Virus record (IMG/VR): IMGVR_UViG_3300029816_000066
Location: 1-7,517 of that record
From: a virus
Taxonomy: Duplodnaviria; Heunggongvirae; Uroviricota; Caudoviricetes
Direction: 5' to 3' (one strand)
Length of the DNA stretch: 7,517 nucleotides
Each line of letters begins with the position of its first letter. Position 1 is the stretch's first letter. Shown piece by piece: positions 2,838 through 7,517 of this stretch. The notes below the pieces were generated by a model. It had not been told where the DNA came from, did not search any database, and saw only the letters and a list, made by a program, of their open reading frames with translations. A program made the position numbers and the translations under genes.

Positions 2838-5800
2838 ATGGGAAAAGGTGGCGGTAAGGCACACACGCCTCGTGAGGCGAAGGATAATCTCAAATCCACG
2901 CAGATGATGAGTGTGATTGATGCGATTGGTGAGGGACCGATAGAAGGTCCGGTGAAGGGACTGCAGAGTATTCTGGTGAACAAAACCCCGCTGACGGACA
3001 CGGACGGTAATCCCGTGATACACGGTGTGACTGCGGTCTGGCGTGCCGGGGAGCAGGAGCAGACACCACCGGAAGGCTTTGAGTCCTCCGGAGCTGAAAC
3101 CGGACTGGGCGTGGAAGTGACGAAGGCAAAACCGGTGACGCGCACCATTACGTCCGCGAACATTGACCGCCTGCGGGTTACCTTCGGGGTGCAGTCACTG
3201 GTGCAGACCACGTCAAAGGGCGACCGTAATCCTTCCTCTGTCCGGATTCTGATTCAGTTACAGCGTAATGGCCGCTGGGTGACGGAAAAGGATGTCACCA
3301 TTAACGGCAAGACCACCTCGCAGTTCCTGGCCTCGGTGATTCTGGATAATCTGCCTCCCCGGCCCTTTAACATCCGGATGGTCAGGGAGACGGCGGACAG
3401 CACCACGGACCAGCTGCAGAATAAGACGCTGTGGTCGTCATACACCGAAATCATCGATGTGAAACAGTGCTACCCGAACACGGCCATTGTGGGGCTGCAG
3501 GTGGATGCGGAGCAGTTCGGCGGCCAGCAGATGACGGTGAACTACCATATCCGCGGTCGCATCATCCAGGTGCCGTCAAACTATGACCCGGAAAAACGCA
3601 CGTACAGTGGTATCTGGGACGGCAGCCTGAAACCGGCATACAGCAACAACCCGGCCTGGTGTCTGTGGGACATGCTGACTCACCCGCGCTACGGCATGGG
3701 AAAACGTCTGGGGGCGGCGGATGTGGACAAGTGGGCGCTGTATGCCATCGGGCAGTACTGCGACCAGACGGTCCCGGATGGTTTCGGGGGGACCGAGCCG
3801 CGGATGACCTTTAATGCGTACCTGGCACAACAGCGTAAGGCGTGGGACGTTCTCAGTGATTTCTGCTCTGCGATGCGCTGTATGCCGGTATGGAACGGCC
3901 AGACGCTGACGTTCGTTCAGGACCGTCCGTCGGATGTGGTGTGGCCGTACACCAACAGCGATGTGGTGGTGGATGATAACGGCGTGGGTTTCCGCTACAG
4001 CTTCAGTGCCCTGAAGGACCGGCACACGGCAGTGGAGGTGAATTACACCGACCCGCAGAACGGCTGGCAGACCTCCACGGAACTGGTGGAAGACCCGGAA
4101 GCCATACTGCGCTACGGACGCAACCTGCTGAAGATGGACGCGTTCGGCTGTACCAGCCGCGGTCAGGCCCACCGTGCCGGGCTGTGGGTGATAAAGACCG
4201 AACTGCTGGAAACGCAGACGGTGGATTTCACGCTCGGGTCACAGGGGCTGCGTCACACACCCGGTGACATCATTGAAATCTGTGATAACGACTATGCCGG
4301 GACCATGACCGGCGGACGTGTCCTGTCCATCGATGCCGCCAGCCGTACCCTGACGCTGGACCGGGAGGTGACACTGCCGGAGACCGGCACGGCCACTGTT
4401 AATCTGATTAACGGCAGCGGTAAGCCGGCGAGCGTGGCCATCACCGCACACCCCGCGCCTGACCGGATACAGGTCAGCACCCTGCCGGATGGTGTGGAGA
4501 CATACGGTGTGTGGGGACTCTCCCTGCCGTCACTGCGTCGTCGCCTGTTCCGCTGTGTCTCCATTCGGGAAAACACGGACGGCACGTTCGCCATCACGGC
4601 GGTGCAGCACGTACCGGAAAAAGAAGCCATTGTGGATAACGGGGCCAGCTTTGAGCCGCAGTCAGGCAGCCTGAACAGCGTTATCCCACCGGCAGTGCAG
4701 CACCTGACGGTGGAGGTGAGTGCAGCTGACGGTCAGTATCTGGCACAGGCGAAATGGGACACGCCGCGGGTGGTGAAGGGTGTGCGCTTCAGTCTGCGTC
4801 TGACCAGCGGAAGCGGAGAAGACAGCCGTCTGGTGAGCACCGCCATCACCGCAGACACGGAGCACCGTTTCAGTGGTCTGCCGCTGGGGGAATACACCCT
4901 GACGGTGCGGGCCATTAACAGCTACGGCCAGCAGGGCGAACCTGCGACCACCACCTTCCGGATTAACGCGCCTGCAAAACCCGCCACCATTGAGCTGACG
5001 CCGGGGTATTTTCAGATAACGGCGGTCCCGCGTCTTGCGGTGTATGACCCGACGGTACAGTTTGAATTCTGGTTCTCAGAAAAACGCATCACGAACACAG
5101 CACAGGTGGAAAAATCTGCCCGTTATCTGGGGACCGGCAGTCAGTGGACTGTCCAGGGGAGCCGGATTAAGCCGGGGACGGATTTCTGGTTTTACGTGCG
5201 AAGCGTCAACCTGGTGGGAAAATCTGCTTTTGTGGAAGCCAGCGGGCAGCCCAGCAATGATGGTGAAGGGTATCTGGAAATTTTCCGGGGGCTGATAGAT
5301 GAGACGCTTCTGGGCCAGGCACTGAAAGAGCGCATTGATGCTTCAGCGCTGCGTACGGAGGTCACGCAACTGGAAGAAGACATCCGTCAGCGGATGGACA
5401 CGGATATCGCAGAAGTGACCCGGAAAATCGGGGAGGCAGAAAACAGCCTCACGCAGCTGGTTGCGAAAAAGAATGAGGACCAGACACTGGCCATCGCGCA
5501 GGTGAGCCAGAAAGTGGACCGGGTGAGCAGTGAAATCTCACAGACTGTCAGCCAGGGGCAGTCAGAAAATGCCCGACAGATAGCACAGGTCCGCCAGTAC
5601 GTGGATAAAAAAGGGAGTGAAATTACCTCGACCACGGATAAAAAACTGGGTGACCAGGCCGTGACCATACAGCAAATCCAGCGGGTTCAGTCAGACACGC
5701 GCAATGAGCTGAATGCCATGTATATGCTGAAGGTGCAGAAAACAAAAAACGGTATTCCCTATGTGGCCGGGATTGGTGCGGGGATTGAGGATGTTGATGG

Positions 5801-6530
5801 TCAGACGCTGAGCAGTATTCTGCTGCAGGCTGACCGTATCGCGATGATTACCCCGGAGAATGGCAACACCACGCCGCTGTTTGTGGCGCAGGGGAATCAG
5901 CTGTTCATGAACGACGTGTTCCTGAAGCGACTGTTTGCGGTGAGCATCACGTCATCCGGCAATCCTCCTACGTTTTCCCTGACGCCGGATGGCAGGCTGG
6001 CAGCCCGCAATGCGGATATCAGTGGAGCCATCACGGCGAATACCGGCACGCTCAATAATGTCACCATTAACGAGAACTGTGTCATCAGAGGGAAACTGTC
6101 TGCAAACCAGATTGAAGGCGATCTCGTTAAAACAGTGGGTAAGGCTTTCCCCCGTGGCTCCCGTGCACCGGAGAGGTGGCCATCAGGGACCATTACCGTC
6201 AGGGTTTATGACGATCAGCCGTTTGACCGGCAAATTGTTATTCCGGCGGTGGCATTCAGCGGTGCCAGACATGAGCGGGAGAATAACGATATTTATTCGT
6301 CATGCCGCCTGATAGTACGGAAAAACGGTGCTGAAATTTATAACCGTACCGCGCTGGATAATACGCTGGTTTACAGTGGTGTTATTGATATGCCTGCTGG
6401 TCGCGGCCACATGACGCTGGAGTTTTCTGTATCAGCATGGTGGGTAAATGGCTGGTATCCCACAGCAAGTATCAGCGATTTGCTGGTTGTTGTGATGAAG
6501 AAAGCCACTGCAGGCATCACGATTAGCTGA
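2838..6530 (+). CDS. J: Central tail fibre / host specificity protein J (lambda gpJ-like), 1230 aa
   Basis: N-terminus [22 protein letters not shown]…[15 protein letters not shown] and many later blocks ([93 protein letters not shown]…[40 protein letters not shown]) match my recall of lambda gpJ. A fibronectin-III-like segment lies at about aa 610-700. RBS GGGGAAGG sits 4 nt upstream of the ATG. Confidence 0.95.
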
Positions 6531-6548: not shown

Positions 6549-6576
6549 GGGCGCCAGAAATGGCGCCTTTTTTATT
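6549..6576 (+). terminator. Intrinsic terminator immediately downstream of J
   Basis: GGCGCC (6550-6555), loop AGAAAT, GGCGCC (6562-6567), then TTTTTTATT (6568-6576). Confidence 0.65.
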
Positions 6577-6597: not shown

Positions 6598-7197
6598 ATG
6601 CGTAAATTATGTGCTGTTATTCTGTCCGCAGTAGTCTGGCTGGTTGCCGCTGGTACGCCAGCGAGCGCAGCAGAGCATCAGTCCACACTAAGCGCCGGGT
6701 ATCTTCAGACCCACACTGATATGCCAGGCAGCGATAATCTGAACGGGATTAACGTGAAATACCGTTATGAGTTTACGGACGCGCTGGGGCTGATTACGTC
6801 CTTCAGTTATGCCAATGCTGAGGATGAGCAAAAAACGCACTACAGCGATACCCGCTGGCATGAAGATTCCGTGCGTAACCGCTGGTTCAGCGTGATGGCG
6901 GGGCCATCTGTACGCGTGAATGAATGGTTCAGTGCTTATGCGATGGCAGGTGTGGCTTACAGCCGTGTGTCGACGTTCTCCGGGGATTATCTCCGCGTAA
7001 CTGACAACAAGGGGAAAACGCACGATGTGCTGACCGGAAGTGATGACGATCGCCACAGCAACACGTCTCTGGCGTGGGGAGCTGGCGTGCAGTTTAACCC
7101 GACCGAATCCGTGACCATTGATATTGCTTATGAAGGTTCCGGTAGTGGCGACTGGCGAACGGATGCATTTATTGTTGGTATCGGATACCGTTTCTGA
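6598..7197 (+). CDS. lom: Lom-like outer membrane protein (Ail/Lom/OmpX/PagC family 8-stranded beta-barrel), 199 aa, with signal peptide
   Basis: N-terminal signal peptide (MRKLCAVILSAVVWLVAAGTPASA then AEHQ). Conserved blocks relative to lambda Lom (GINVKYRYE, SVMAGP, SAYAMAGVA, DIAYEGSGSGDWRTD, FIVG(I/V)GY) and a C-terminal aromatic residue (…GYRF) typical of beta-barrel OMPs. RBS GAGAGG sits 5 nt upstream of the ATG. Same position as lambda lom, between J and stf. Confidence 0.9.
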   Translation: MRKLCAVILSAVVWLVAAGTPASAAEHQSTLSAGYLQTHTDMPGSDNLNGINVKYRYEFTDALGLITSFSYANAEDEQKTHYSDTRWHEDSVRNRWFSVMAGPSVRVNEWFSAYAMAGVAYSRVSTFSGDYLRVTDNKGKTHDVLTGSDDDRHSNTSLAWGAGVQFNPTESVTIDIAYEGSGSGDWRTDAFIVGIGYRF

Positions 7198-7348: not shown

Positions 7349-7517
7349 ATGACAGTAAAAATTTCTGGCGTGCTTAAAGATGGCACAGGAAAACCAGTAC
7401 AGAACTGCACCATTGTGCTGAAGGCCAGACGGACCAGCAGCACGGTGGTGGTGAACACGGTGGCCTCTGAAAATCCGGATGAAGCCGGGCGTTACAGCAT
7501 GGATGTTGAGTATGGCC
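7349..7517 (+). CDS. stf: Side tail fibre protein Stf (lambda Stf / orf-401-like), N-terminal fragment; 3' end lies outside the window
   Basis: Translation MTVKISGVLKDGTGKPVQNCTIVLKARRTSSTVVVNTVASENPDEAGRYSMDVEYG is near-identical to my recall of the lambda Stf N-terminus (MAVKISGVLKDGTGKPVQNCTIQLKARR…NPDEAGRYSMDVEYG). It is missing from the ORF track only because fewer than 60 codons fall in the window. Confidence 0.88.
   Translation, partial: MTVKISGVLKDGTGKPVQNCTIVLKARRTSSTVVVNTVASENPDEAGRYSMDVEYG

Follow-up and report, generated by a model that had tools for sequence, protein, structure and literature searches.

Organization of the tail-tip module

The window, by which we mean the whole 7,517-nt stretch of DNA that was analysed, is the tail-tip module of a lambda-like prophage, and it contains the following genes and features:

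83-469: gpM (open reading frame list)
469-1167: gpL (open reading frame list)
1173-1916: gpK (open reading frame list)
up to 2494: gpI, whose end lies at this position (open reading frame list)
2495-2837: gap between I and J, 344 nt
2838-6530, plus strand: gene J, tail tip attachment protein and central tail fibre, 1230 aa, an intact single open reading frame (open reading frame list, 58% identity to lambda gpJ, Pfam)
6550-6576, plus strand: terminator-like hairpin GGCGCC-AGAAAT-GGCGCC followed by TTTTTTATT, 20 nt past the J stop codon, read from the sequence by eye
6598-7197: Lom-like outer-membrane protein of the Ail/Lom type (Pfam Ail_Lom, 425 bits)
about 7350-7517: start of the side tail fibre gene, encoding its N-terminus (open reading frame list)

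The order M-L-K-I-J-lom-stf, read from the open reading frames of the window, the annotations of lambda and of CFT073, and Pfam, matches that of lambda. In phage 21, lom is absent between J and the side tail fibre, whereas it is present at this place in both the window and lambda. From nt 1750 onward, the window matches a prophage adjoining potB in the uropathogenic Escherichia coli strain CFT073 at no less than 99.6% identity; in that prophage, the counterpart of J is annotated as 'phage attachment tail tip protein J'. A mosaic junction lies near nt 1750: nt 500-1500, covering gpL and the start of gpK, are just 73-85% identical to the CFT073 prophage, and nt 1-465 (gpM) fall outside the alignment that matches it. 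Judged by these identities, gpM, gpL, and the start of gpK are of a lineage different from that of CFT073.

The tip attachment protein J

The product of J is a tip attachment protein and central tail fibre of the lambda gpJ type, a designation with which its domain set, its gene position, and its Ig-like fold all agree. It is 58% identical to lambda gpJ (NC_001416) over its full length, it carries the Pfam domains FNIII-A_GpJ, Phage-tail_3, Ig_J, Ig_J_second, Phage_Tail_Tip, and Ig_GpJ_C, all of which score far above their curated cut-offs, and it differs from the gpJ of CFT073 (WP_000514735.1) at two residues only (T358M and G1107D).

The resemblance to lambda is unevenly distributed along the protein. 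Taken in blocks of 50 aa, identity is mostly 60-88% over aa 1-800, with one block at 48%, stands at 62-78% over aa 1001-1100, and is 46%, 44%, and 30% in the successive blocks of aa 1101-1230. At the DNA level, J is about 75% identical to lambda outside its divergent parts; blastn aligns 2838-5285 and 5835-6080, and the same search against lambda gave no match over 5285-5835 or over 6080-6530. The distal break, at nt 6080 (aa ~1081), is close to the position, about aa 1085, at which an earlier note on this DNA had placed the onset of a divergent C-terminus, and the divergence itself is borne out by the last 150 aa, of which 63 of 148 (43%) are identical to lambda gpJ in BLASTP and 42.3% in a global alignment, which is well below 90%. 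The same note had called everything upstream of this boundary highly similar to lambda, a description that suits aa 1-800 but does not extend to some 100 residues within aa ~835-940, which are without a lambda counterpart, and that is too generous for DNA of only ~75% identity. The short conserved anchors that it had listed within the divergent part are all present (WPSGT at aa 1114, FDRQIV at 1129, IDMPAGRG at 1183, and VMKK at 1219), but two of the four are inexact, lambda having VDMPAGRG and VIKK.

Helical shaft, central fibre, and receptor-binding domain

The distal portion of J is divided as follows, the names of the fibre domains being those of Ge and Wang (2024):

5259-5723, plus strand: alpha-helical shaft, aa 808-962 (single-sequence AF2 model, gap in the lambda alignment, blastn)
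5724-6134, plus strand: central straight fibre (beta-prism), up to the receptor-binding domain (Pfam Phage_Tail_Tip at aa 944-1071; 62-78% identity to lambda over aa 1001-1100)
6135-6527, plus strand: Ig-like receptor-binding domain, aa 1100-1230, corresponding to the divergent region (Pfam, AF2, Foldseek)
6144-6185, plus strand: predicted distal ('bottom') loop L1, aa 1103-1116, which holds G1107 (AF2 strand order)
6273-6290, plus strand: predicted distal loop L2, aa 1146-1151 (AF2 strand order)
6354-6362, plus strand: predicted distal loop L3, aa 1173-1175, with little variation within the class to which the domain is assigned below (AF2 strand order)
6441-6479, plus strand: predicted distal loop L4, aa 1202-1214 (AF2 strand order)

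In a single-sequence AF2 model, query residues 8-162 form a near-continuous helix (H8-22 and H24-162), giving a predicted shaft of ~155 helical residues, which is ~100 more than in lambda and agrees with the ~100 residues that are gapped in the lambda alignment; the corresponding segment of lambda gpJ is a short alpha-helical shaft (Ge and Wang 2024, PMC11101478). The shaft of the window is also longer than, and unrelated to, that of the VT1-Sakai prophage, and its DNA (5285-5820) is matched by neither lambda nor VT1-Sakai in blastn. Because a DNA match to VT1-Sakai is missing as well, the shaft behaves, in these alignments, as a mosaic module of its own; it is mostly covered in four phage records only, among which PhiR40_1 provides the sole match at 98.9%. 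Should the helices form a coiled coil, the central fibre would be lengthened by roughly 15 nm, as estimated at 1.5 A per residue.

The receptor-binding domain belongs to a defined protein family, with aa 1100-1230 matching Pfam PF12421 (Ig_GpJ_C, 'Tip attachment protein J, C-terminal receptor binding domain') with a score of 130 bits, the cut-off being 26.2. An AF2 model of aa 1061-1230, predicted as a monomer, has a pLDDT of 80.7, and a Foldseek search of this model against the PDB returned four top matches (9wca, 9wcb, 8xck, and 8xcj) at E-values of 4e-19 to 6e-18 and TM-scores of 0.73-0.80, the next match following only at 2e-4. These four entries are A8 gpJ in the closed state (9wca), A8 gpJ in the open state with the OmpC of EDL933 (9wcb), lambda gpJ closed (8xck), and lambda gpJ open with LamB (8xcj). 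The A8 domain thus shares both the fold (TM 0.73-0.77) and the Pfam family of the window domain. No solved structure is closer in sequence (E 5.9e-109), and A8 has been solved in complex with EDL933 OmpC (9wcb); it is 63% identical to the domain of the window, with an L2 region that is 5 residues longer and an L1 region that is 4 residues shorter. A literature search for a paper on the A8-OmpC structure found none.

The loops L1-L4 are predicted from the topology of the model, that is from strand order and not from superposition, and their counterparts in lambda gpJ would be the four 'bottom loops' inserted into LamB (Ge and Wang 2024, PMC11101478). The lambda domain (8xck, 8xcj; PMC11101478) shares with that of the window the protein architecture, the Ig-like domain, the four distal loops, and probably the manner of triggering, but it is only 42-43% identical in sequence, uses LamB as its receptor, and sits on a shaft that is ~100 residues shorter.

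Class membership and frequency of the allele

Over the last ~150 aa, the window is 92% identical to VT1-Sakai and to 1A2, a natural gpJ C-terminus considered in the next section, 66% to phage 21, 63% to A8, and 42% to lambda. Still closer relatives are the temperate isolates PhiR49_2 (96%) and PhiR40_1 (94.7%), and the PPompW prophages stand with VT1-Sakai at 92%. The domains of A8 and phage 21 share 81% identity, and a fifth class, the phage 434 type in its 155-aa form (lambda h434, mEp460, cdtI, and Stx2c phages), belongs to the same family as the domain of the window and is ~42-44% identical to it. Phage 434 is classically said to be a user of OmpC. On these identities, the domain of the window is assigned to the Sakai/1A2 class of gpJ receptor-binding domains and is not a new type.

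The allele is common, not rare. In the phage collection, 57 of the 243 records with this domain family carry a domain at least 90% identical to that of the window, including VT1-Sakai, the PPompW prophages, many Stx2a phages, and the temperate isolates PhiR49_2, PhiR40_1, PhiR55_1, and PhiR46_1, the last four of which form plaques and have a domain of the Sakai/1A2 class at 90-96% identity. Among complete E. coli genomes, 638 of 5426 (~12%) contain 80% or more of a 1.3-kb segment from the 3' end of J, and this segment is found at an identity of at least 99% in 195 genome records. The J sequences returned by a protein homology search were for the most part short pieces, several with frameshifts; they served for alignment, being unfit for counting full-length alleles.

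Within the class, variation is concentrated at few places, and the positions that vary are those that differ between the window and 1A2. The most variable stretch is aa 1144-1152, around L2; positions 1202 and 1205 in L4 are multi-allelic, and both differ from 1A2 (W/L and G/N); and the junction between fibre and domain (CVIRG, aa 1081-1085) is variable, with positions 1082-1084 multi-allelic. G1107 in L1 (nt 6156-6158) is private to the window, Asp being found in the gpJ of CFT073 and in all 18 class relatives examined. Read from aligned sequences, such a pattern is consistent with a domain that is still adapting to a receptor which is itself polymorphic.

The receptor of the window domain

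The most informative relative of the window is a domain that has already been assayed for its receptor. In a study by Brodel et al. (Nature 2024, PMC11338833), the part of lambda gpJ from aa 964 to the end was exchanged for natural gpJ C-termini. Two of the resulting chimeras, A8 and 1A2, came out of a screen on a lamB deletion strain and were assayed in a lamB ompC double deletion strain complemented with 23 OmpC variants (PMC11338833). In cells that lack LamB and their own OmpC, 1A2 delivers DNA only if OmpC is supplied, accepting the EDL933 variant and not that of K-12, and A8 accepts both the K-12 and the EDL933 proteins; 21 of the 23 variants were served by 1A2, A8, or both (PMC11338833). 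Delivery by 1A2 into UTI89, considered as evidence that OmpC of phylogroup B2 is recognized, was dropped, as the text of the paper names A8 and its legends 1A2 (PMC11338833).

The C-terminus of 1A2, read from the DNA in the supplement of PMC11338833, is identical to the J of VT1-Sakai at 170 of 170 residues, in a frameshift-corrected reading that was stitched from three frames, with about six machine-reading frameshifts corrected by hand. The segment swapped in 1A2 (lambda aa 964 to the end) is equivalent to aa ~1062-1230 of the window and therefore spans the divergent region. Between the window and this allele, which is shared by 1A2, VT1-Sakai (Sp15), and PPompW and comes from enterohaemorrhagic E. 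coli, 138 of 150 residues are identical in a gapless alignment of the same length and with the same conserved core. Three of the 12 substitutions lie at the junction (aa 1082-1084), and the others, given from the window to 1A2, are G1107D in L1, R1144K, R1147K, N1149H, and N1150T in or beside L2, W1202L and G1205N in L4, and V1178I and R1189H elsewhere, so that about half of the 12 differences (6-7) are in or beside the predicted loops L1, L2, and L4.

Since the near-identical 1A2 retargets lambda particles from LamB to OmpC, we infer that OmpC, rather than LamB, is the most likely receptor of the window domain as a member of the 1A2/Sakai class, with a probability that we put at roughly 0.65. 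Against this reading weigh the 12 of 150 residues at which the domain differs from 1A2, the discrimination that 1A2 itself exercises between OmpC variants, the lability of receptor choice in this family as seen in phage 21, the unusual long-loop OmpC of CFT073-type hosts, and the hand correction of frameshifts on which the reading of 1A2 depends. The earlier note had concluded from the divergence of the domain that a receptor other than the LamB of lambda is used; its conclusion is probably right, on account of the OmpC use of 1A2 at 92% identity, but its argument from divergence fails with phage 21, a phage with a domain equally divergent from that of lambda that nonetheless uses LamB.

On this reading, nt 6135-6527 encode an Ig-like receptor-binding domain, presumably trimeric, that forms the far tip of the central tail fibre and would favour certain OmpC variants over others. 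If it works as the solved lambda domain does on LamB and the A8 domain on OmpC, each protomer would push its four distal loops into the porin trimer from the cell exterior; the three domains would thereby be spread apart and the beta-prism above them twisted, and the helical shaft would then flip, allowing the tail tip to open for DNA ejection.

Alternative explanations

A first alternative is that the substitutions in the loops, D1107G included, have retuned the allele to a different porin or to a different variant of OmpC, such as the long-loop OmpC of the ST73 lineage, and that the longer shaft is itself an adaptation, one that could help the tip to get past the capsule and O-antigen of extraintestinal strains to the outer membrane; taken jointly, these two suggestions are a tentative proposal that we would rate as rather unlikely. 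The OmpC of a CFT073-type host is a long-loop variant, with a precursor of 375 aa that is 90.7% identical to K-12 OmpC and has insertions of 3, 1, and 4 residues in its extracellular loops relative to K-12. This form (ompC at L007 1590-2717, outside the window) is common to CFT073, Nissle 1917, ABU 83972, and ATCC 25922, and ompC of CFT073 is found at an identity of at least 99% in only 115 of 20,395 records. Several strains with the J allele of the window have the long-loop OmpC. The co-occurrence of the J allele with OmpC of the ST73 type was set aside as evidence, since shared clonal ancestry confounds it and strains of other lineages carry the allele too.

It is also conceivable, though in our view unlikely, that the 12 substitutions relative to 1A2 have shifted or broadened the specificity of the domain toward another porin such as OmpF, or toward several porins. 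The receptor choice of phage 21 moves from LamB to OmpC and then to OmpF within 1-10 mutations in J (PMC11336670), the sites that vary within the class are concentrated in the loops predicted to face the receptor and at the junction, which is where mutations of this kind take effect, and D1107G in L1 is private to the window. On the other side, both of the tested natural alleles that flank the window in sequence space, 1A2 and A8, use OmpC, and nothing positive speaks for any other receptor.

Continued use of LamB, after the manner of phage 21, strikes us as quite improbable. The domain of phage 21 (OL657228) is 48% identical to that of lambda and 66% identical to that of the window, from which it differs in class within the same family, and its native receptor is LamB, to which the single J mutation I1025T adds the use of OmpC (PMC11336670); at the site of this mutation, both the window and 1A2 have Leu (IEGDLVK). 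The window is, however, far closer to 1A2 than to phage 21, and 1A2, the closest relative to have been tested (92%), was isolated on cells deleted for lamB and depends on OmpC. What phage 21 does establish is that divergence from lambda is not diagnostic of a change of receptor, and, since this phage switches so readily and is 81% identical to the OmpC-binding A8, that receptor choice among the trimeric porins is labile and is not predicted by percentage identity to lambda.

That J belongs to a decaying prophage and retains no adsorption function, as might be suspected from the tail-fibre assembly genes just downstream in the CFT073 prophage, which are truncated and marked as pseudogenes, and from the frameshift in the J of VT1-Sakai, is very improbable, because the 1230-aa open reading frame is intact with six Pfam domains and is conserved at 99% or more in 195 genome records, and because the plaque-forming isolate PhiR40_1 has the same shaft (98.9%) and the same class of domain (94.7%).

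Recognition of OmpC thus remains our preferred reading of the domain. For basic biology its import is small, as the modular and fast-evolving nature of gpJ receptor-binding domains is textbook knowledge and lambda particles have already been redirected to OmpC with domains of this class. Its practical value is that a natural allele from a uropathogenic background is added to the panel of OmpC-binding domains, one that differs from 1A2 mainly in the predicted contact loops and that could help to extend delivery vectors or phages to the OmpC variants missed by 1A2 and A8. For genome scans, the case carries the caution, drawn from phage 21, that a receptor-binding domain unlike that of the reference phage is, taken alone, no predictor of a receptor switch.

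The gap between I and J

The gap between I and J measures 344 nt in the window versus 60 nt in lambda. On the minus strand it has a near-consensus promoter (TTCACA-16-TATAAT, from 2632 to 2605) and, ~100 nt downstream of it, a hairpin (CCCGCAG..CTGCGGG, from 2540 to 2500) followed by seven T; both elements are conserved in PPompW and VT1-Sakai, and the interior between them varies. The predicted RNA of ~100 nt has a folding energy of -19.4 kcal/mol (z -2.3). A search of the whole window against Rfam at E-values up to 0.1 gave no match, and the gap RNA has no annotation in CFT073. We consider the region a candidate prophage small RNA, which may possibly be PasB, an RNA described as lying within a phage structural operon. 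The prophage small RNA svsR of strain NC101 was ruled out as its identity, svsR being located at cI.

A second, perfect hairpin lies at 2703-2740 (AAACCCCGGTATC-loop-GATACCGGGGTTT), with T-rich sequence on either side; it is part of a stretch of ~100 nt that is absent from VT1-Sakai, and the hairpin is present in the window, CFT073, and PPompW.
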